A stretch of 32,000 nucleotides of DNA from Promethearchaeota archaeon (GTDB lineage Archaea; Asgardarchaeota; Lokiarchaeia; Sigyniarchaeales; SOKP01), in contig JAUWGH010000004.1 of the NCBI GenBank assembly GCA_030606485.1, positions 150,001 through 182,000 of the forward strand, given 5' to 3'. The notes under the pieces were generated by a model. The model was not told the origin of the DNA, did not search any database, and saw nothing but the letters and a program-made list of their open reading frames with translations. The translations under genes and the position numbers were made by a program. Of the stretch, positions 1,203 to 28,912 are shown one piece after another (position 1 is the stretch's first letter; each line of letters opens with the position of its first letter).

Positions 1203-2021
1203 TTAAAGCGATACGTTAAACTCACGAATTAACTTTTCAATTTCCTTGTCTGTAATGAAACCTTTCGAATCAACCACTTCCTGTATTCTGATCTGAACTT
1301 TCTGAAGCGTTTCTCCTACTGATAATTCGGACATTAATGTTTTAATTTTATGGTTAAGTTCATTTACCTCATTTGATTTCTCTTCTAATTCAGATTTTAC
1401 TGCATCTAAATCTCTCTCTTTAGATAATACTTTTTGCCCCAAATCAGATGATTTACCAAAAGTCGATTGTAATTGTTTTTCTAATTCTAAAGTTTTTAAT
1501 TTTGAAGCTTCAAGTTGCTTTTCCAAATCAAAATTTTTATTTCTTGTGTCATGTAATACTGATTTTGTTGATTCTAAGGTAGATTCAAGTTCAGTTGATT
1601 TATTAGTTAAAGCTTGTTTCTCTCCTTTAAATACATTTAAATTTTGTTCAAGAGAATCAATCTTTTCAGACGCTTCATTCAATTGCTGTCCTGTGGAAGA
1701 AAATTTTTCTTGAGTTTCACTTAGACTCTTCTCAGTAGAATTCAACTTTTCGTTTGTTTCATTTAAAATACTTTCAGTACTAACCAATTTTTCATTAACT
1801 TCATTTAAACTCTTTTCAGTTTTAGATAATTTTGTTTCAGTCTCTAATAATTTCGATTTAGTTTCATTTAATTCATCACTTGTTTTTTCTAAACCCGCTT
1901 TAGAAGATGTTAGCTGATTTTCTAAACTAGTTATTTTTTTTCGGAGATCCAAAAGCAAACTCCCATCAACTTTTCTTTTCTTACTTGGATTTGCTTCAAT
2001 ATCTGACCAATCGATGCTAAT
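1203..2021 (-). CDS. Coiled-coil protein, paralog 2 (~272 aa; probable ATT start, 21 codons upstream of the ORF-track start)
   Basis: The frame is open from 1958 up to ATT(2021-2019)-AGC-ATC-GAT-TGG = (I)SIDWSDIEANPSKKRKVDGSLLLDLRKK, collinear with the MSI.W heads of the paralogs. GAGGTG lies 7 nt upstream, and an in-frame TAA two codons upstream excludes an ATG start. Confidence 0.85.
   Translation of the reverse strand: MSIDWSDIEANPSKKRKVDGSLLLDLRKKITSLENQLTSSKAGLEKTSDELNETKSKLLETETKLSKTEKSLNEVNEKLVSTESILNETNEKLNSTEKSLSETQEKFSSTGQQLNEASEKIDSLEQNLNVFKGEKQALTNKSTELESTLESTKSVLHDTRNKNFDLEKQLEASKLKTLELEKQLQSTFGKSSDLGQKVLSKERDLDAVKSELEEKSNEVNELNHKIKTLMSELSVGETLQKVQIRIQEVVDSKGFITDKEIEKLIREFNVSL
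1641..1871 (-). repeat. 11 tandem degenerate heptads (consensus LxxTxxK/S) in paralog 2
   Basis: LNETKSK-LLETETK-LSKTEKS-LNEVNEK-LVSTESI-LNETNEK-LNSTEKS-LSETQEK-FSSTGQQ-LNEASEK-IDSLEQN. Confidence 0.85.
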
Positions 2022-2224
2022 TATTTAACACCTCTAAAATATTGAATTCTAAATTTATTTGTATATTTATCTTTCTATTTTACATTATTATAAATTTAAT
2101 TGTTAAATAAATCATTTTTTTTTATCTCTTTTAAGTATTAGCAATTATGTTTTATCTTAATTTCTCAATTAAATAGTAATAATTAAAAATTAAATAATAC
2201 CCTGAAAAATGAGGGATTTAATTA

Positions 2225-2253
2225 TAAGAGTTGAATAAATTAACCAACTCTTA
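2225..2253. terminator. 9-bp inverted repeat overlapping the stop codon of paralog 3 (possible terminator or processing hairpin)
   Basis: TAAGAGTTG-(11 nt)-CAACTCTTA. Function is not demonstrated. Confidence 0.3.
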
Positions 2254-3066
2254 GAATTCTTTGAAGAGGTCTTCAATATCCTTATCCGTAATAAAACCTT
2301 TCAATTCTGCAAGTTTTTGAATTTTTGCACACAGGCTTGGAAATTTATCTTCATCTGAAAGTTCAGTTTCAAGAGATTGAAGTTTATCGTTGAGTTCATT
2401 TATATTATTAATTTTTTCTTCTAATTCGCCTTTTAAATTTTCAATTTCCTTTTCCTTTGCCGAAATAATTCGCTCGGCATCAGTAACTAAATTGATTTTT
2501 CCTTCAAATTCCTTAAATCTTGTATTAGATTCAGATAATTGTTCTTCTAAATCTGAAATTTTAGTATTACTTTCTTTTAAAGTCAATTCAAGCTCAGAAA
2601 TTTTGTGAATTCCAATATCTTTATCATCCTTAATTGAATTTAATTCTTTTTCAAGAGAATTTATTTTCTCATTTGTTTCACTTAAATTTTGCTCAGTGGA
2701 AGCTAACCATTCATTAGTGGAAGCTAAATTTTTTTCTGTTAATTCATATTTCTCACTTATTTCCTTTAATTTCTTTTCTGTTGTTTCTAATTTCCCATTG
2801 GTTTCATTTAAACTCTCTTCTGTCGAAAATAATTTATCACTAGCCTCACTTAGATTCTTTTTACTTTCCGATAAGTTTTTCTCAGTCAATGATAATTTAT
2901 CCTTGGTTTCAGATAATTCACTTCTCATTTTATTTAATTCTGCATTATTTGAAGTCAACACTTTCTCTAAAGCATTTACCTTCTCTCGAAAATCTAATAA
3001 AATTCGACCCTCAACCTTGAGCTTTTTACTTGGATTGGTTTCAATTGAAACCCAATTAATACTCAT
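2251..3066 (-). CDS. Coiled-coil protein, paralog 3 (271 aa), function unknown
   Basis: MSINWVSIETNPSKKLKVEGRILLDFR head, long heptad rod, KGFITDKDIEDLFKEF tail. Confidence 0.85.
   Translation of the reverse strand: MSINWVSIETNPSKKLKVEGRILLDFREKVNALEKVLTSNNAELNKMRSELSETKDKLSLTEKNLSESKKNLSEASDKLFSTEESLNETNGKLETTEKKLKEISEKYELTEKNLASTNEWLASTEQNLSETNEKINSLEKELNSIKDDKDIGIHKISELELTLKESNTKISDLEEQLSESNTRFKEFEGKINLVTDAERIISAKEKEIENLKGELEEKINNINELNDKLQSLETELSDEDKFPSLCAKIQKLAELKGFITDKDIEDLFKEF
2644..2916 (-). repeat. 13 tandem degenerate heptads in paralog 3
   Basis: LSETKDK-LSLTEKN-LSESKKN-LSEASDK-LFSTEES-LNETNGK-LETTEKK-LKEISEK-YELTEKN-LASTNEW-LASTEQN-LSETNEK-INSLEKE. The DNA has an exact 12-nt repeat, AGTGGAAGCTAA, at 21-bp period. 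Confidence 0.85.
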
Positions 3067-20610: not shown

Positions 20611-21876
20611 TTATTTATTTGCCTCGTCATCATCCGTGTGGATTCTTTTAAGGTCTATTTCACTATATCCGGGCAAGGCATTTATGAGGTTTCTCATAGA
20701 TCGTTCAACATCCTTACTTGAGGTAATGTACCTTCCAATAATTAATATATCTGCTCCCATTTTAATTGCATATTTAGCAGTCTCGGGTTCTATCCCTCCT
20801 GCAACAGCTACAAGTACTCTATCTCTCCCAGAAACAAATTTTTTATCTTTATAAAATTCTTTGATTTTTGGAACCCATGCCCACTTTTGACGTTGAATAT
20901 CGTTAGTTTCGACACTTTCGGTATCAATTCCTCTATGTAATATTACTACATCGGGAATTTCTTTTAGTTGTGATAATTTTACAATGGGATCATCAACTTC
21001 CATCATATCTACATACGCATAGATACCAACTCTGTGCGCTTCAAATAAGAATTTATCAAGCATAACCGGAGATGCAAGACCTGAAGCAACCACAGCATCT
21101 GCGGTGGCATCAAAAGCAAAATCCACTTCTAGTTTTCCAACATCTAAAGTTTTTAAATCAGCGACTAAAAATACATCAGGTAATTTTTCTCTTAGTTTTA
21201 CAACTGCATCCATTCCATATTTTTTTATCAAGGGAGTTCCGGCTTCAATAATTATTCTATCACTTCTTGGTAATTGGGAAACAACTTTCATTTGATGGTC
21301 TATTGAGGGATGATCCAATGCTACTTGAATATAAGGTGGTCTCCATAGACGTGGCATCTTGATTCCAGAGACTGGGTGTTTTGCTCTATCTTTATCATAA
21401 AATATTTTCTTAATTGTTGGATATTTTTCAATTGCTCTTTTGATTGCTAATTTTGTTGCACCATAATTATATTGGTAAATTCTTCTATAATCTGAAGCAC
21501 CTGGGTGAATAAAACAGCTAACTACAATCACCCAATCGTCGGCTTTATTGATAGGGATCACTCCTTCTTCTAAAGAATCTGCTACAGCTTTGGCGATTGC
21601 TGCCTGCGCCGGTCCAAAAATCTTACTTGCATCCTCTAGGTTTCCAATGGTAACTTTCGGAATTATTAAGGTTTGGGGTTTAGGTGTTAAATTAGGTCGA
21701 ATTACAGCTAATAGAGCGCCGTGACCTACACTAGGTTGGGTCAATGCATTTGCAAAAGCTTGTCCAACAGGACCGTTTTTAGATCCAATCATTAAGTCAA
21801 TGTGAGCTAGGTTTTCTTTCTCACCAAGGAGCGCTTCACCTATCAAAAATTCATCTTTAGCAGGCATATAAACCAT
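20611..21876 (-). CDS. fae-hps: Bifunctional formaldehyde-activating enzyme / 3-hexulose-6-phosphate synthase
   Basis: Fae half: IGEAL.G...AHIDLMIG...FGPAQAAIAKAV. Hps half: IEAGTPLIK, ADLKTLD, HRGID, VAGGI. Confidence 0.95.
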   Translation of the reverse strand: MVYMPAKDEFLIGEALLGEKENLAHIDLMIGSKNGPVGQAFANALTQPSVGHGALLAVIRPNLTPKPQTLIIPKVTIGNLEDASKIFGPAQAAIAKAVADSLEEGVIPINKADDWVIVVSCFIHPGASDYRRIYQYNYGATKLAIKRAIEKYPTIKKIFYDKDRAKHPVSGIKMPRLWRPPYIQVALDHPSIDHQMKVVSQLPRSDRIIIEAGTPLIKKYGMDAVVKLREKLPDVFLVADLKTLDVGKLEVDFAFDATADAVVASGLASPVMLDKFLFEAHRVGIYAYVDMMEVDDPIVKLSQLKEIPDVVILHRGIDTESVETNDIQRQKWAWVPKIKEFYKDKKFVSGRDRVLVAVAGGIEPETAKYAIKMGADILIIGRYITSSKDVERSMRNLINALPGYSEIDLKRIHTDDDEANK

Positions 21877-22008
21877 TTTTTTATTAGTTATTCTAAAATA
21901 TTATCCACTATGTAAAAAGAGATTATCAATTTATTAAAACTTAAGTAATATGAGAGTATTAGTTTAAGGTAAATTTAAAAGGGATTTTTTTTTTTAACTT
22001 ATTCTAAA
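21874..22008. repeat. Diverged direct repeat of a stop-spacer-start junction (21874-21897 and 21983-22008)
   Basis: CAT-T6-ATTAG-TTATTCTAAA versus GAT-T10-AAC-TTATTCTAAA. Confidence 0.55.
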
Positions 22009-22859
22009 TCAATTTTATCTTTATTAACTTTATTAACATTTAGTTGTTCTTTTATTGGCTCTTCGATTAATTTTTCAGGAATTTTCATTGAATTAAAAAT
22101 AGAATTCATTTCTCCAGGTTGATGGAATTTTTCTTCCATAAAAATTGGAATTTTTATTTGTTCGCCCTTGACTTTTAAATCTTCTGGAATATAATATTCT
22201 ACTGCCTGAACTTTACCATCTTTTATTATTAATCTTATAGAATACTGGTATGTATTATCAAAATAGAAGCCATTAGGAATTTGGCCTAATTTTTTTATAG
22301 TTTTTATTTCATCGATTTTAGTTATATATGAATTTAGTTCAGATTCATAGGAATAGAAATCCCCTCCTATAAGAATAATTTTAGGATGGAAATCTTCTGG
22401 TTGAGGGATGGATTTAAGCAATTCAATTGCATCTTTTTTATTAATACCGGTATGTACACACAAATCTGTAAATTTTGTAGCTTTTTCTCCTGGTATAGTA
22501 TAACTATTATAATCTTCTCGTGTAATAACTCGAGCCCTACCAGGTCCAACTTGTTGTTCAAATATTTTCTGAATTGATCTATCATCATAAGAATATTCAT
22601 TCATATTAGAAATTCTATAAAATAATCTAAGTTGGGCTCTAAATTTTCTTGCTAAAATTCCCCCAAACATCTGTAGTTTTAAGGAAGTTTTTGGTCCATA
22701 GTAAGTCCAAATTCTTTTTTCATTATGATCAATTAAAATTAATACTTTCTGATTATCAATTAGATCTTTAACGGTTTCTTCTTTAGATATATCTGCAAAT
22801 AATTCTTTTGTTTCCATATACGGTGGTTCTTTAAGTTCAATAACTTCAAATATTTGCAT
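21999..22859 (-). CDS. Protein with an N-terminal gelsolin-like domain and an unknown C-terminal domain
   Basis: LIDNQKVLILIDHNEKRIWTYYG.KTSLKLQMFGGILARKFR resembles the Asgard gelsolin repeat. The remaining ~170 aa are unassigned. Confidence 0.65.
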   Translation of the reverse strand: MQIFEVIELKEPPYMETKELFADISKEETVKDLIDNQKVLILIDHNEKRIWTYYGPKTSLKLQMFGGILARKFRAQLRLFYRISNMNEYSYDDRSIQKIFEQQVGPGRARVITREDYNSYTIPGEKATKFTDLCVHTGINKKDAIELLKSIPQPEDFHPKIILIGGDFYSYESELNSYITKIDEIKTIKKLGQIPNGFYFDNTYQYSIRLIIKDGKVQAVEYYIPEDLKVKGEQIKIPIFMEEKFHQPGEMNSIFNSMKIPEKLIEEPIKEQLNVNKVNKDKIDLE

Positions 22860-22879
22860 GAGTTACCTCATAATCTTTT

Positions 22880-24238
22880 TTATTTAAGTGCTACTCTTCC
22901 AATAGCTCTAAAAGTTAATTCTTTATCAAATTCTTCAAAAGAAAAAATTCTTCTTCCGTCAATAACAAATGGATTTTTCATTAATCTTATGAATTTGCTA
23001 GGTTTCAGTGTTTTAAATTCATCCCATTCTGTTGTAATTATTGCACAATCAGCATCTTTTAATAATTCCTCAATATTATTGGCATATTCAATTTTATTTC
23101 CCAATACTTCTCTTGCTGATTCTTTAGCTTTTGGATCATATCCAATAATATTAGAAGCATTTCTTTTATTTAATTCATTAATAATTCTTATACTTGGAGC
23201 CTGTCGCATATCATCAGTGCCAGGCTTAAAAGCAAGTCCCAATAATGCAATTTTCTTATTTGAAAGATCATTTAAGGTGTTTTCTGCAAGATCTACAATG
23301 TGAATTGCTTGGTCATCGTTAATATCAAGTACTGCATTTAATAATCGTGGATTATATCCTTTAGATTGTGCAAATGCTTTAATTGCATTAATATCTTTTG
23401 ATAAACAAGAACCTCCGAATCCAACTCCGACTCCTAAAAATCTTTCACAAATCCTGTAGTCAAGACCGACACCCTTCATAACTTGAACTACATCCACTCC
23501 AGGAACAAGTTCTGCTAAATTGGCAAATTCATTAGCATAACTAATTTTTGTTGCTAATAAACAATTATTCCCATATTTAACTAACTCCGCACTCTCCAAA
23601 TTCATTCTTAATATGGGTGCTTTTTTTAAGTGATCTCCATAAAAAGACTCATAGAATTCCTGTAAAATATCACCACTTTTTTTATCAAATTCTCCAATTA
23701 TAATCCTGTCTGGATAGAAAGTATCCTCAATAGAACGTCCCTCAGCTAAAAATTCGGGTTGCATACATAACCCAAAATCCTTCCCTGGTTCCTTTCCACT
23801 AATTTTTTGAATTGTGTCTCCGACAATGTTTCTTGTCGTCCCTGGAACAACTGTCGACCTAACAACTATTAGATGATAATTATCGTTCATTCTCAACACT
23901 TCGCCAATTTCTTTAGCAGATTTTTCCATAAAAGTTAAATCTATTCTTTTATCTTCTCCCAACGGAGTTCCAACGATAATCATTGTAATATCAGTATCTA
24001 GAATAGCTTGCTCTCTTCCCACCAAACACTTAAAATTTCCATCATTTCGATTTACTACTTCTTTCAATATCTCTTCTAGCTCTACTTCATAAAAAGGAGC
24101 AATCCCTTGATTAATCAAATCAGCTTTCTTTTTATTATGAGTTGAAGCAATAACCTTTATTCCCCTATGAGCAAAACAAACAGCTGAAACAAGACCGACA
24201 AAACCAGTACCAAGGATTGAGACACTTAATTTCTTCAT
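22880..24238 (-). CDS. ugd: UDP-glucose/GDP-mannose dehydrogenase family protein
   Basis: GTGFVGL, STVVPGTT, PEFLAEG, GFGGSCL.KD and LGLAFKPGTDDMR motifs. Confidence 0.95.
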   Translation of the reverse strand: MKKLSVSILGTGFVGLVSAVCFAHRGIKVIASTHNKKKADLINQGIAPFYEVELEEILKEVVNRNDGNFKCLVGREQAILDTDITMIIVGTPLGEDKRIDLTFMEKSAKEIGEVLRMNDNYHLIVVRSTVVPGTTRNIVGDTIQKISGKEPGKDFGLCMQPEFLAEGRSIEDTFYPDRIIIGEFDKKSGDILQEFYESFYGDHLKKAPILRMNLESAELVKYGNNCLLATKISYANEFANLAELVPGVDVVQVMKGVGLDYRICERFLGVGVGFGGSCLSKDINAIKAFAQSKGYNPRLLNAVLDINDDQAIHIVDLAENTLNDLSNKKIALLGLAFKPGTDDMRQAPSIRIINELNKRNASNIIGYDPKAKESAREVLGNKIEYANNIEELLKDADCAIITTEWDEFKTLKPSKFIRLMKNPFVIDGRRIFSFEEFDKELTFRAIGRVALK

Positions 24239-24364
24239 AAAATATATAAAAGAATTTGGTCTTTAAATTTTTTTATTTCTTTTATCTTTAGAAAATCTTT
24301 TAAGTTTTGAGACACTTAATTTCTTTATAATATAGAAAAATTTTATTTTGGTTATCTTTAAATG
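24212..24364. repeat. Diverged tandem duplication of the divergent ugd/rps6e junction (24212-24269 and 24302-24364)
   Basis: TTGAGACACTTAATTTCTT[C/T]ATAA is 23/24 identical at 24217 and 24307; both units end in TTTGG..CTTTAAAT. Confidence 0.85.
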
Positions 24365-24787
24365 TCCGAAAAGCCCTCTTATAAATTAAATATCTCTGGT
24401 GGCAACTCTGGTCCCGGCAAAGGAAAAACAAAATTAATTCAAGTAGATCAGTCAAAAGTAAATTTAAAGGGTTTAAAAATTGGAACCACGATTAAGGGGG
24501 ATCAAATAGGTCTTGTTGGATATGAGTTAATAATTACTGGTGGATCAGATAACAGCGGTTTTCCACTGAGAAGAGATATAGATGGGCCTTTAAAGAAAAG
24601 AATTCTCATTTCAAAAGGAATAGGTTATAAACCAAAGAGAAAAGGGGAACGAAGACGAAAAACTATGCGTGGGAATGAAATATCTTTTGATACAAGTTTA
24701 GTTAATCTAAAGATTATAAAATATGGAAGTTCTAAATTTTTTAGCAAAACAGAGAAGAAAGAACCTATAGAAAAAGAAAAAAAGTAA
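24362..24787 (+). CDS. rps6e: 30S ribosomal protein S6e
   Basis: LIITGGSDNSGFPLRRDI...GERRRKTMRGN. Confidence 0.97.
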   Translation: MSEKPSYKLNISGGNSGPGKGKTKLIQVDQSKVNLKGLKIGTTIKGDQIGLVGYELIITGGSDNSGFPLRRDIDGPLKKRILISKGIGYKPKRKGERRRKTMRGNEISFDTSLVNLKIIKYGSSKFFSKTEKKEPIEKEKK

Positions 24788-24828
24788 TACATATTCATTA
24801 ATACTTTTAAAAATTGGAGAAAATAAAG

Positions 24829-25011
24829 ATGGTCAAAGTTAGAAATTGCTCATTCTGTGGTTATAACATCCCGGTTGGACGGGGAATAATGTATATAAAA
24901 AATGACGGAAATATTCTAAACTTTTGCTCAAATAAGTGTCGTAAAGCAATGATTAAATATAAAAAGAATCCAAGGAAAACCCGTTGGACTAAATTTTATG
25001 GAAAACAATAA
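24829..25011 (+). CDS. rpl24e: 50S ribosomal protein L24e
   Basis: CSFCG..I..GRG.MY...DG....FCS.KC...PRK.RWT. The ATG at 24829 is preferred because GGAG lies 9 nt upstream. Confidence 0.96.
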   Translation: MVKVRNCSFCGYNIPVGRGIMYIKNDGNILNFCSNKCRKAMIKYKKNPRKTRWTKFYGKQ

Positions 25012-25016
25012 TTTTT

Positions 25017-25220
25017 TTATTGTAAGCGCGGAAATTTTAAGATTTCATCAATTAAATTTATATGACTAACGATCATACGCTTACAGCAAAATCTGGAAAT
25101 ATTTAATTTTTTAAAAGCATCTTCCGAGGGAATCCCTTTTTTAACTGTCATTTCAATATATGGTTCGTATAGATCTCCAATTAATTTTCCACAACTAAAG
25201 CATCGGATTGGAATAATCAA
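25017..25220 (-). CDS. rpo10: DNA-directed RNA polymerase subunit Rpo10 (N)
   Basis: IIPIRCFSCGK...RFCCKRM. TTG start. Confidence 0.97.
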   Translation of the reverse strand: MIIPIRCFSCGKLIGDLYEPYIEMTVKKGIPSEDAFKKLNISRFCCKRMIVSHINLIDEILKFPRLQ

Positions 25221-25454
25221 TTAATTTTTTCAGCTTTTCCCTTTTTTTTTTGTATTTACTTAACTAATTTATAGTTATTAACTAGCAATATATCCTTCCT
25301 AAAAAATTTTATTAATAGAGAGGATTTTTATTTTTTAAGAAAGTCAATATTTTTAATAGATTATTAATTTTCCAAATAATTTTTATGTTTATATAACTTT
25401 TTTAATTTAATTTTATTGAATTTGATATCACTTTAAGTTATAAATAATTATAAA

Positions 25455-26939
25455 ATGTCTCAAAGTACAAGTAAATTCTTAAGGTTCTTCTCCCCATTTA
25501 TCCGAGCAATGCCGGAAATAAAAACTCCAGATAGAGAAGTCTCTTTTAAAGAAAAAATAATATGGACAGTAGTTGCTTTAATTATTTATATAGTTATGAG
25601 TAATATCCCTTTATTTGGGGTTGATATTCAAGAAACTGAAGACTATTTCTATTGGTTGCGAGTTATTTTAGCCTCTCAGAGGGGAACATTAACGGAGCTG
25701 GGGATAGGTCCGATTGTTACTGCAGGTCTTATTATGCAGTTATTAATGGGTTCAGGTATTATAAAGATAAATATGGCAGATCCTTATGATCGAAGCATGT
25801 TTACTGGAGCCCAAAAAATTTTAGCAATATTTCTTACGGTATTTAATACTATTGCATATTTAATTGGAGGTGCTTTTGGAAATGTTGCAGAAATTGGCCC
25901 TGCAGCAATTATATTTATCTTTCTCCAACTATTTTTCTCGGGAATAATCATAATTTTACTAGATGAAATGTTACAGAAAGGTTGGGGTATTGGCTCAGGT
26001 GTTTCTCTCTTTATTGCAACTGGAATTGCAGGACAAGTATTTTGGAACTGTTTTAGTTTTGTTCCTATGACTGGAGAACATTTTGATGGGATGCCTCGTG
26101 GTATAGTTATAGCGTTTTTTCAAGCAATTTTTAATCCTGCTGATTCTGTTCCAATTGGGGATTTATGGTTTCGTCCTTCCAATTTGCCTGGACTTATGAG
26201 TATCATAACAACAATTGGAATATTTGTTGTCATTGTATATTTTGAAAGTGTTACTATTGACATTCCTCTGGCTTATAGTGGTTATCGAGGTTTCAAAGGA
26301 AAATATCCAATCAAATTATTATACGTATCAAATATTCCAGTTATTTTAGTATCAGCTCTATATGCAAACATAATGTTTTTAGGTCAAATGATTGCAGGAC
26401 CAAATTCAGCTCTCCGTGGTGGGGATTTGGATTTCTTTTTAAATTTTATTGGCCAGTACGGAGATCCAGGACAGAGTCCGGGAGGAAGTTATTTAAACCC
26501 AGTAGGGGGACTAATTTATTTAATGACACCTCCACAGGGATTTCAATCAGTTATTGATGATCCTTTACGAGCCGTCATTTATTTAGTGATATTCATAGTA
26601 TTGTGTATAGGATTCGGGAGAATTTGGGTTGAGGTTTCTGGATTGGCTCCACGGGATATTTCGAGACAAATTATCGATAGTGGAATGGAGATTCCAGGTT
26701 TTAGAAGATCCGAGAAGATTATTGAGCAAATATTATCAAGATATATACCTACATTGACGATATTATGCGGAATAATAGTTGGATTACTTAGTTTCACCTC
26801 GGATGCGTTGGGAGCACTTTCTTCAGGAACAGGGTTATTAATTGCCATTGGAATTATTCATCAGTATGCCGAGTCAATTTCAAAGGAAGCTGCTGCGGAA
26901 CAATACCCGGCTCTTCGTGGTTTCCTAGGATTAGATTAA
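25455..26939 (+). CDS. secY: Preprotein translocase SecY / Sec61-alpha
   Basis: GTLTELGIGPIVTAGLIMQLL, LDEMLQKGWGIGSGVSLFI and YPIKLLYVSNIPVIL. Confidence 0.98.
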   Translation: MSQSTSKFLRFFSPFIRAMPEIKTPDREVSFKEKIIWTVVALIIYIVMSNIPLFGVDIQETEDYFYWLRVILASQRGTLTELGIGPIVTAGLIMQLLMGSGIIKINMADPYDRSMFTGAQKILAIFLTVFNTIAYLIGGAFGNVAEIGPAAIIFIFLQLFFSGIIIILLDEMLQKGWGIGSGVSLFIATGIAGQVFWNCFSFVPMTGEHFDGMPRGIVIAFFQAIFNPADSVPIGDLWFRPSNLPGLMSIITTIGIFVVIVYFESVTIDIPLAYSGYRGFKGKYPIKLLYVSNIPVILVSALYANIMFLGQMIAGPNSALRGGDLDFFLNFIGQYGDPGQSPGGSYLNPVGGLIYLMTPPQGFQSVIDDPLRAVIYLVIFIVLCIGFGRIWVEVSGLAPRDISRQIIDSGMEIPGFRRSEKIIEQILSRYIPTLTILCGIIVGLLSFTSDALGALSSGTGLLIAIGIIHQYAESISKEAAAEQYPALRGFLGLD

Positions 26940-27085
26940 ACAATATATAGGTGATTAGAAATGAGTCTTCTTTTCTTCTTAATTCTCTAAAAGTTTATTT
27001 TTTAGCATGACCTAAAAGTAATTATACCCAAAATTTTTTAACTTTTTAGGATTAGATTAATAATAAAAAGGAGGTTAGAAATTTG
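26904..27085 (+). repeat. Diverged tandem duplication (121-bp period) of the secY 3' end + SD + start junction
   Basis: TAGGATTAGATTAA is exact at 26926 and 27047. The copies encode YPALRGFLGLD* and YPKFFNFLGLD* in register, and each is followed by an SD motif and TTAGAAAT. Confidence 0.85.
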
Positions 27086-27763
27086 ATAATATTAATTTTT
27101 CAGGAAACAACCAACTTTCTTGATTTAATTAGTTATCCTTTAGGATCAACTATTTTTGTTATGTTATTATCGCTAACGATTGCGCTTTTTTCTTCATTTT
27201 TAACAAAGAAGTTAGTTGATACTGAAGAAATAGAGAGAAAACAGAAGCTCATTAAAAAACATAAAGATGAAAAGAAAAGGATAATAAAACTCGCAGAAAC
27301 AAACCCAAAACAATATAGAAAGAAGAAAATTAAATGGCAAAGAAAGGATCAATTTATAAAAAACATCGAACGAGGAATGTCTATGCAACGAATGAAACCA
27401 ATGTGTTTCACTTTTTTACCGATGATGATAATGTATGGATTAATGAATCTTTTTTTTGAAAGAAACCCCATTGCTTGTACACCCATGAATGCAAACGATG
27501 TCATGTTAATTGGTGAATATATTTGGGCTGCAACAAATATCGATGAACTCCCGCCTGCATGGACTGCATTAGTTTGGGGGGAAGCACGTCATATTGGTAA
27601 ATTCGAAGGATGGATTGGTTTTACTGCGTGGTATTTCTTGAACTCCTTATGTTTTAATACTATAATCAATCGATTATTAGGAATACAATCACAAACTACT
27701 GGTGGTATGGAAGGAATGTTTAAGGGAATGGGAGCAGAAGCACAAGAATTTCCTGATATTTGA
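27083..27763 (+). CDS. EMC3/TMCO1 (DUF106, Oxa1 superfamily) membrane protein
   Basis: TM1, a Lys-rich coiled coil, MQRMKPMCFTFLPM, then WYFL.S..F. GGAGG 8 nt before TTG; downstream of secY. Confidence 0.9.
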   Translation: MIILIFQETTNFLDLISYPLGSTIFVMLLSLTIALFSSFLTKKLVDTEEIERKQKLIKKHKDEKKRIIKLAETNPKQYRKKKIKWQRKDQFIKNIERGMSMQRMKPMCFTFLPMMIMYGLMNLFFERNPIACTPMNANDVMLIGEYIWAATNIDELPPAWTALVWGEARHIGKFEGWIGFTAWYFLNSLCFNTIINRLLGIQSQTTGGMEGMFKGMGAEAQEFPDI

Positions 27764-27791
27764 TATTTCTTTTAAGAGATTTAAAAATTAG

Positions 27792-27908
27792 CGCAGATGG
27801 AGGGATTTGAACCCCCGAGCGCTTTCACGCACTGGCTTTATAGGTAAAATAATCTTTTACTATTTAATTGCTCCAAGCCAGCGTCTTACCAGTCTAGGCT
27901 ACATCTGC
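27792..27908 (-). tRNA. tRNA-Ser(GGA) with a 33-nt intron at 37/38
   Basis: Acceptor GCAGATG/CATCTGC; anticodon stem CTGGC/GCCAG; long variable arm GCGT-GAAA-GCGC; T-arm GGGGG-TTCAAAT-CCCTC. Confidence 0.93.
27838..27870 (-). other. tRNA intron at canonical position 37/38 (relaxed BHB/BHL)
   Basis: AT-rich insert with an internal hairpin GTAAAA-GATTA-TTTTAC. Removing it restores the 7-nt loop TTGGAGA. Confidence 0.82.
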
Positions 27909-28010
27909 TTATTGTATATTTTTAATGTTCTTTTTAATAATTATTAGATTTTAGATATTAAAAAATGAAAATTAAATTTTAGTCAAAAAACGAGTGTGTT
28001 GAAATGGAAG

Positions 28011-28283
28011 TCATAATGAGATTTTTATTATTTCTTTCATTTTTTTTTCTATTTTTGCATTTTTAATTGCTTTTTCAATATCTTCGTGTTTTGCTCCTTT
28101 AGAAATTTTTACTTTGTCTTTTAATGGCTCTAAGTGTTTAAAATTAACTCTTCTTCTTTTAACTACAAGTCCATCAACAAGAGCGAAATTTTTATCAATA
28201 ATTTCGATGATTACACATTTTTTTCCAGCTTCTCTTCCCGTTGTCTTTACGCAGACTCTTCCTATTTCGTATATTGTGCTCAT
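28011..28283 (-). CDS. rpl14e: 50S ribosomal protein L14e
   Basis: EIGRVCVKTTGREAGKKCVII..ID.NFALVDG..VKRRRVN..HLEP. Confidence 0.97.
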   Translation of the reverse strand: MSTIYEIGRVCVKTTGREAGKKCVIIEIIDKNFALVDGLVVKRRRVNFKHLEPLKDKVKISKGAKHEDIEKAIKNAKIEKKMKEIIKISL

Positions 28284-28378
28284 TTTTAGGATTCACAACT
28301 TTTTAAATTTAATATTATCAATAATTTTTAAAATAATAATTTTTTTATTTTAGGAAGAATTAAATAATATTTTAAAAT

Positions 28379-28912
28379 TTAAGCCTTTTTGATTTCAGCA
28401 ACAATATTATCCACAATTTCTTCAATTGATAATTTTTCTGTATCAATTATGATATTATATAATTCTCTGATGACTTTTTCATCTTGTAAATCGATATTAT
28501 ATAATTTTTTAAATCTTCTTGCTTCACTCCATTCTCTACGTAATGTCTCATCTATTTTCTCTTTATAATTAGTTTCATCTCGGTTACTCATCCTTTTTAT
28601 ACGAGTTTCAAGAGGACAACGAAGTAATATTTTAAAATTGGCTTTATCCTTAAGAATGTAAGCACTTAATTGGCTATCAATAATGATATTCCCCATACTT
28701 GCGATATTATTTATTTTTTTATCCAGCATAATATCTATTTCGGGGTTTTTTTCAGCAAATTCAGTAAATTCTTTAAGAGACATATTTTGTTCTTTTGCAA
28801 GTTCCCTGAAAGCATCACCTGTAGAATAATAACGTAAATTAAAGGTTTCAGCGATTTTTTTACCTATTGTTGATTTCCCTGTTCCATGAAGTCCAGAGAT
28901 AGTAATTATCAA
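28379..28912 (-). CDS. cmk: Cytidylate kinase, archaeal type
   Basis: ITISGLHGTGKST...STGDAFRELA; lies between rpl34e and rpl14e as in the conserved archaeal order. TTG start. Confidence 0.95.
   Translation of the reverse strand: MIITISGLHGTGKSTIGKKIAETFNLRYYSTGDAFRELAKEQNMSLKEFTEFAEKNPEIDIMLDKKINNIASMGNIIIDSQLSAYILKDKANFKILLRCPLETRIKRMSNRDETNYKEKIDETLRREWSEARRFKKLYNIDLQDEKVIRELYNIIIDTEKLSIEEIVDNIVAEIKKA

Follow-up and report, generated by a model that had tools for sequence, protein, structure and literature searches.

Ghosts of gene ends in a Promethearchaeota genome, possible scars of one-sided recombination

When a junction between two genes seems to be present twice, is the repeat a real duplication and, if so, by which route did it arise? 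This question is raised by a 32,000-nucleotide (nt) stretch of a Promethearchaeota archaeon (GenBank assembly GCA_030606485.1, contig JAUWGH010000004.1), hereafter the window, which corresponds to G000:C2:150001-182000 in a genome (G000) of 3.75 Mb and 29% GC. An initial annotation of the window proposed four duplicated junctions, in each of which one copy would keep the signal of one gene and the other copy that of its neighbour. The claimed repeats lie at 21874-22008 (J1), 24212-24340 (J2, between ugd and rps6e), 26922-27082 (J3, between secY and an EMC3-like gene) and 28281-28382 (J4). Two of them, J2 and J3, proved to be real: each contains a live gene end and a short non-functional copy of it, which we call a ghost. 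Both were compared with G001 and G002, of the same genus, and J3 also with the more distant G004, likewise of this genus, and with L068, a metagenomic relative whose secY is ~96% identical. The closest sister genome, G003, was used at other loci; its assembly does not span J2 or J3.

The repeats were evaluated against 2332 intergenic regions of 40-500 nt, taken with 60-nt flanks, using the best internal direct repeat of each region. In the null comparisons, an equal search space was confronted with intergenic regions elsewhere that share its orientation class. For J2, both the repeat finder and a gapped alignment pair 24212-24250 with 24302-24340, 90 nt apart, with a core of 23/24 matches, and its best internal direct repeat ranks 5th among the 2332 regions. 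By the same two approaches, J3 shows a core of 14/14 extended by the Shine-Dalgarno spacer, at a period of 121/120 nt; it ranks 31st when scored without gaps (empirical p ~0.004), and its gapped score is above those of all 1000 shuffles. On the other hand, the score of 22 found for J1 (21876-21897 versus 21987-22008) is attained by 44% of null comparisons and the score of 24 found for J4 by 23%. The length of both spacers is unchanged in three sister genomes, which display no single-copy state. The J1 match, claimed for 21874-22008 without strand, consists of a T-run and a short AT-rich match, and neither it nor the equally strandless J4 match at 28281-28382 is a real feature. Furthermore, the ATG at 21874-21876, which had been read as a start, is absent in G001-G003, where the conserved start is 21867. 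Thus, of the four proposed duplications, those at J2 and J3 exceed the null, whereas J1 and J4 have chance scores and a constant spacer length. The reciprocal retention of signals is indeed seen in J2 and J3, but it is no guide to the mechanism, since selection acting on any duplicate that spans a junction would yield the same pattern.

The history of J3 is the clearest. This junction separates secY (25455-26939) from an EMC3/TMCO1-like (DUF106) gene (27083-27763). In G001, G002 and G004, a single tight junction is observed, in which the secY stop is followed by 17-23 nt carrying GGAGG and then by a start codon, TTG or GTG. L068 is arranged likewise, and in the runs X2-X4, a contig of an environmental relative, ~94% identical, joins 26921 to 27043, omitting exactly 121 nt. 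The single tight ancestral junction predicted by the initial annotation was therefore found in all of these relatives. Eight independent assemblies of the species, 99.2-100% identical, have the additional 121 nt, and in three of them the ghost core carries a G>A change. As judged from these comparisons, the 121-nt gain is real, derived and fixed in the species. The true repeat is ~40 nt long (26922-26962 versus 27043-27082) and not 59 nt; the presumed upstream extension of the ghost, 'YPKFF', does not belong to it, since its bases fall within a 51-nt segment of foreign origin located in the filler between the two copies.

The two copies of J3 differ both in function and in divergence. The proximal copy (B, 26922-26962, plus strand) comprises the live last 18 nt of secY, including the stop at 26937-26939, followed by a spacer of 23 nt in which the Shine-Dalgarno sequence is weakened (GGTGA). 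The distal copy (B', 27043-27082, plus strand) comprises a ghost of the same 18 nt and a 22-nt spacer with an intact GGAGG, which serves the EMC3-like gene and its TTG start at 27083. The distal copy has 0/40 differences from L068 and none listed in the X2-X4 relative. The proximal copy differs from the single junction of L068 at 8/40 positions and from that of G001 at 5, and its spacer is nearer to the G001 type. Four of the differences are synonymous changes unique to G000, grouped within 8 nt of the live secY end, at -22 to -15 from the stop. At sites taken as neutral, 10/31 are changed in the live copy versus 0/27 in the ghost (Fisher p = 0.001). On the evidence of these relatives, it is the distal ghost that keeps the ancestral sequence and the live secY end that is the diverged copy. 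The secY/EMC3 spacer, formerly part of a tight junction, is now 143 nt long and contains T-runs. J3 turned a coupled junction into a long spacer, with a transcriptional split as its predicted consequence; the dissolution of operons, put forward as a possible outcome in Asgard genomes, may apply to this junction at most. Elsewhere in secY, 17 differences between G000 and L068 are grouped in one 60-nt window, ~800 nt before the stop, a patch of the kind described below for conspecific strains. Candidate secY ghosts noticed by eye in other genera (G008, G017) were not significant and were discarded.

The 80 nt of the filler (F, 26963-27042, plus strand) resemble neither flank: in register, identity is at best 24-25/62, compared with 18.9 +/- 3.9 for random sequence. 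It contains oligo-T runs and a dead 9-codon mini-open reading frame (26961-26990) that begins within the proximal copy. BLAST found no other copy of it in G000. Its 51-nt segment (26988-27038, plus strand) is 96% identical in contig C396 of G003, is also present in an environmental relative and recurs in other public contigs with unlike flanks; in G000 it occurs only at J3. In C396, the segment borders directly on DNA that is also present in G002, as several insertion sequence (IS) copies, and it is located ~420 nt from the gene of a 354-aa TnpB of an IS200/IS605-like element. When two filler patterns were searched in collections, the first had no match among genome contigs and the second matched only the G003 contig; among viral contigs, neither pattern had a match. 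The TnpB gene itself (1918-2982, minus strand of C396, locus L102) occurs several times in G002 and at least once in G003, and no copy at the DNA level was found in G000. An open reading frame close to it (925-1326) may, by eye, be MazF-like.

J2 has a different organization. The UDP-glucose dehydrogenase gene, ugd (22880-24238, minus strand), and rps6e (24362-24787) are separated by a spacer of nearly equal length in the sister genomes. The live ugd start (24217-24240, minus strand, ATG at 24238-24236) matches 24307-24330 at 23/24 positions. The latter segment belongs to a derived replacement patch located just upstream of the rps6e ATG at 24362 (allele B, 24307-24367, plus strand), in which 52 nt at 24310-24361 replace the 42 nt of allele A. 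The ghost of the ugd start occupies the first 24 nt of allele B, its ATG having become ATA; no source of its 3' half was found in G000-G004. Allele B is carried by G000, L041, L042 and L048, and allele A by L045, L046, L047, G001 and G002. An older, degenerate ghost was also considered in allele A and rejected, its similarity to the ugd start being at chance level. Hence, J2 did not originate as a duplicated short bidirectional spacer, as first suggested: the long spacer without a ghost, seen in G001, G002 and the conspecific allele A, is ancestral. According to this allele distribution, J2 is a recent replacement patch, polymorphic within the species. A short single ancestral junction, expected for every locus, was thus recovered at J3 and not at J2, where the long spacer came first, nor at J1 and J4, where the length is constant.

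Other regions of the same locus corroborate the antiquity of the long rps6e leader. The 68 nt at 24239-24306 (no strand assigned), which include a TATA-like motif, are nearly invariant in G000, G001, G002 and the conspecific strains and are better conserved than the flanking coding DNA. A related TATA-like motif is present upstream of rps6e in five other genera, and this segment probably holds the rps6e promoter. In other genera of the family, rps6e is preceded divergently not by ugd but by a homologue of the 286-aa gene situated at 21999-22859 in the window. This arrangement indicates that ugd is a newcomer beside rps6e, inserted in this genus only, and that the long leader is ancestral. The conspecific strains (99.2-100% identity) differ almost only in dense patches of 40-60 nt, namely 23401-23437, 24310-24367 and 24469-24511, with G000 being derived at the first two. 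Such patches point to active short-patch recombination with diverged DNA, or to gene conversion, of which they would be the signature.

Are J2 and J3 isolated accidents? In the intergenic set described above, 15 regions have a best internal direct repeat scoring at least 40, versus 1.2 expected. In addition, each of 4404 gene termini was compared with its adjacent intergenic DNA, other intergenic regions serving as the null. Terminus ghosts scoring at least 40 numbered 6 versus 0.1 expected, and those scoring at least 36 numbered 8 versus 1.3 expected; these genome-wide counts are approximate, as genes were called by a simple method based on open reading frames and codon usage that missed small genes such as L24e. 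Although rare, terminus ghosts do not occur at random, and the recurrent duplication of gene termini announced by the initial annotation is upheld across the genome.

Three further ghosts of 3' ends were set against the sister genomes. At C2:258378/258488 (contig and positions in G000; period 110), a single copy is found in G001 and G002, and the duplicate is shared with G003. At C10:301761/301883 (period 122), a single copy is found in G001, G003 and G004, and the ghost is again the conserved copy. Compared with the single copy of a sister, the ghosts at J3, C2:258378 and C10:301761 show 0/40, 2/58 and 2/36 differences, respectively, versus 8/40, 11/58 and 6/36 for the live copies. At C2:258378, the live copy has the G002 allele and the ghost the G001 allele at ~7 of the 11 differing sites. 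The fillers at C2:258436 and C10:301797 have no similarity to their flanks above chance; by BLAST, the former has no other copy in G000 and the latter matches only low-complexity AT-rich DNA. The C10 event lies in a region (G000:C10:299700-302700, L079) with a ~1.5-kb gene that has tandem paralogues in G003, and terminus ghosts follow two neighbouring genes there (C10:300201 and C10:301797).

A third event involves a much larger insert. The repeat at C8:6503/6636 has a period of 133 and a filler made up of the final ~25 codons of a helicase gene; in G003, this gene is the tight convergent neighbour of an ACT-domain gene, only 5 nt away. In G000, this filler matches the live helicase end located 7 kb away. 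Between the ghost and the live helicase lies a 6.8-kb island (G000:C8:6640-13424, L100), present between the ACT-domain and helicase genes in both G000 and G001. It encodes a trehalose synthase (TreT), an ATP-binding cassette (ABC) sugar transporter composed of a binding protein, a fused permease and a MalK-like ATPase, and an unknown protein of 156 aa. A single overlapping join explains the structure observed at C8:6558.

Larger direct repeats with the same topology were revealed by self-BLAST. About 14 pairs of 56-174 nt, 0.1-13 kb apart, associate the live 3' end of a gene with an intergenic copy, versus only ~4 like pairs involving 5' ends. In the one pair that was checked, the C10:309375 cassette, the repeats bracket a gene for a 714-aa protein and the site is empty in G003. 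No integrase or transposase was detected when the inserts at C8, C10:309434-311737, C10:460077-465361 and C3:57858-59553 were scanned with Pfam. Over the whole genome, the tyrosine recombinase family PF00589 was matched only at C1:146684 and C1:390705, both outside the inserts, other recombinase classes not having been searched genome-wide. The cassette on C3 comprises two genes and is bracketed by a 106-nt direct repeat of 92% identity (G000:C3:57755-57857 and 59554-59659, L116), one copy of which is the live 3' end of a gene for a 93-aa zinc-ribbon protein. One cassette gene has a weak SMODS nucleotidyltransferase match, just under the Pfam cut-off, which hints at a defence function.

The anatomy common to these events is a live end, extra DNA of ~50 nt to several kb, a ghost end and then the ancestral downstream sequence. 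We give about an even chance to the reading that J2 and J3 are scars of one-sided homologous, illegitimate recombination, in which additional DNA, of foreign origin or taken from another part of the genome, would have been inserted where two genes meet. Entering from a related lineage, a fragment would pair by homology inside a conserved gene, such as secY or rps6e, and its other end would be joined without homology some tens of nucleotides away. The junction would thereby be doubled where incoming and resident sequences overlap, and the added DNA would lie either between the two copies or next to them. The survivors would be those outcomes that leave both flanking genes whole, and thus each gene would retain one intact terminus and redundant signals would decay. 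Conserved genes such as secY and rps6e would be good anchors, which may explain two events only 3 kb apart. How the DNA recombined, in which direction it moved and whether transcription changed are inferences drawn from comparing genomes. Of the three mechanisms initially considered, slippage, recombination and insertion with excision, an insertion-type process fits best, whereas slippage or tandem copying is disfavoured by unrelated fillers and unequally diverged copies.

How do other explanations compare? Chance matching in AT-rich intergenic DNA does account for J1 and J4. That it accounts for all four repeats is hardly conceivable, since J2 and J3 exceed both the real-intergenic null and the shuffles, and both are derived states relative to the relatives. 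A local tandem duplication by replication slippage or unequal crossing-over, followed by decay of the redundant halves and turnover of the sequence between them, is a more serious contender, though an unlikely one. Two direct copies 90-133 nt apart have the expected topology, orientation and short spacing, and the 133-nt period at C8:6558 equals the end of the first gene plus that of its former convergent neighbour, so that the unit could there be as long as the inter-copy distance. At the other loci, however, the unit is much shorter than the period: only ~40 of 121 nt are repeated at J3, 58 of 110 at C2:258378 and 36 of 122 at C10:301761, the rest being unlike the flanks, and part of the J3 filler comes from a locus absent in G000. 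J2 is a replacement patch with no added unit. Tandem copying also sits poorly with the finding that, at three loci, the functional copy has diverged more than the non-functional ghost, although short-patch recombination could later render copies unequal and blur this argument.

Slightly less probable again, in our view, is an origin from elements, site-specific integrative or otherwise mobile, that insert at the 3' ends of genes, bring a replacement end with them and later disappear entirely or for the most part. Archaeal and bacterial elements inserted in the 3' ends of tRNA or protein genes are indeed bracketed by direct repeats of the gene end, with the live end on the gene side. The displaced ancestral end beyond the insert and the diverged live copy reproduce this attL/attR topology, and the core of the J3 filler adjoins TnpB-associated IS DNA in G003. 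Against such elements, the inserts examined contain neither integrase nor transposase and the two PF00589 matches lie elsewhere; targets and repeat lengths (40-174 nt) vary, and no shared core is evident in the repeats, on which no systematic test was made. Moreover, several inserts are too small: the four short events, with remnants of 51-85 nt, would need repeated near-complete internal deletions, and their filler sequences are not repeated in the genome. IS200/IS605-type elements produce no target duplication. Two further candidates were rejected: a transposon target-site duplication, which is of fixed length, usually 2-15 bp, and flanks an element with defined ends, by the variable repeats of 36-174 nt and by fillers not repeated in the genome, and off-target integration of a spacer of clustered regularly interspaced short palindromic repeats (CRISPR), judged by length, in which the duplicated segment would always match the CRISPR repeat in size and the insert a spacer, by the variable repeats of the short events (36-61 nt) and their 51-85-nt inserts. 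It is also improbable, more so than either duplication or integration, that the duplicates were kept because they are useful, the spacer uncoupling secY from the EMC3-like gene through a terminator and a new promoter or leader, with the ghost lying in the 5' leader. The distal copy with its 18-nt ghost is unchanged relative to two relatives, the filler has oligo-T runs and AT-rich TATA-like words, and the gain is fixed in 8/8 conspecific assemblies. Nevertheless, three strains have the G>A change in the ghost core, the role itself is only predicted, and ghosts elsewhere follow terminal genes, where uncoupling does not apply. Such usefulness would, in any case, account for persistence and not for origin.

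One-sided recombination, the reading that we prefer, has a known counterpart. Homology-facilitated illegitimate recombination (HFIR) is known in Acinetobacter, Streptococcus pneumoniae, Pseudomonas stutzeri and E. coli conjugation (PMC3240628). The likeness lies in the combination of one homologous anchor and one non-homologous joint, in foreign DNA placed beside a conserved gene, in resident sequence that may be duplicated or replaced at the joint, and in insertion without a dedicated recombinase. Foreign or ectopic DNA is found beside the homologous anchor here as well, as the 51-nt piece of J3 and the 6.8-kb island of C8. By the anchor, the live copy is diverged or has the allele of another lineage, as expected of a donor-type allele, though later patch recombination gives the same picture. 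The two differ in that HFIR was established by bacterial experiments, whereas our case is inferred from the comparative genomics of an Asgard archaeon, where some inserts are tiny (51-85 nt).

Several observations weaken the case for one-sided recombination. To our knowledge, HFIR has been demonstrated experimentally only in bacteria. The microhomologies at the joints are short and AT-rich (TTG on the left side of J2, T5 on the right side of J3), as would be expected by chance in DNA of 29% GC, and are uninformative. The collection scans found no donor genome in which the proximal J3 copy is joined to the filler, and no source was found for 26963-26987 or for the fillers of C2:258436 and C10:301797. 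No alignment was possible between the C10:309375 repeat and the G003 gene end at the empty site. Furthermore, the resemblance of the copies to different lineages could also result from a plain duplication followed by short-patch recombination, and an integrase may act in trans.

A second comparison concerns the displacement of gene 3' ends, which leaves 'orphan' remnants in the effector/immunity arrays of the Vibrio cholerae type VI secretion system (T6SS) (PMC5361080). As in those arrays and in Rhs/CdiA toxin tips, a new live 3' end is followed downstream by the old end, with short homology between them. T6SS, Rhs and CdiA loci, however, exchange variable toxin tips under diversifying selection, whereas here housekeeping or ordinary genes are concerned (secY and the one with an ACT domain), and what has been displaced amounts to no more than 18-58 nt, hardly different in coding sequence from the live end.

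J2 and J3 are ordinary in kind, being scars of recombination or insertion, and they reveal neither a new molecular mechanism nor a new one for dissolving operons. More tentatively, and with a somewhat less than even chance of being right, one-sided homologous capture at conserved gene ends, independent of integrases, may be a routine source of new DNA for Asgard (Loki-type) archaea, in pieces ranging from tens of nucleotides to multi-gene cassettes. Such captures would leave ghosts of 40-170 nt, which could be used as datable transfer markers, and would occasionally part tight operon junctions, as at secY/EMC3. If this is true, terminus ghosts would be a cheap marker, readable from sequence only, of where and roughly when a lineage took in DNA, and would also mark the end of the insert that was anchored by homology. 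Since integrases are few in this genome, the question bears on how Asgard archaea acquire genes. J3 also records a dated example of a translationally coupled secY-EMC3 junction being parted by 121 nt within a genus.

The remaining genes of this part of the window are as follows. A Fae-Hps gene (20611-21876, minus strand) precedes the 286-aa gene, which is of unknown function and also on the minus strand. In the gene list, rpl24e stands between rps6e and rpoN, and rpoN, on the minus strand, stands between rpl24e and secY. Downstream of the EMC3-like gene, a tRNA with an intron (27792-27908, minus strand) is followed by rpl14e and then cmk. Rfam identified no RNA family over J2 and J3, and its sole match (40.7 bits) is this 117-nt tRNA, whose intron is ~45 nt long and which was missed by ARAGORN. 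A homologue of the tRNA is present at the same place in G004.

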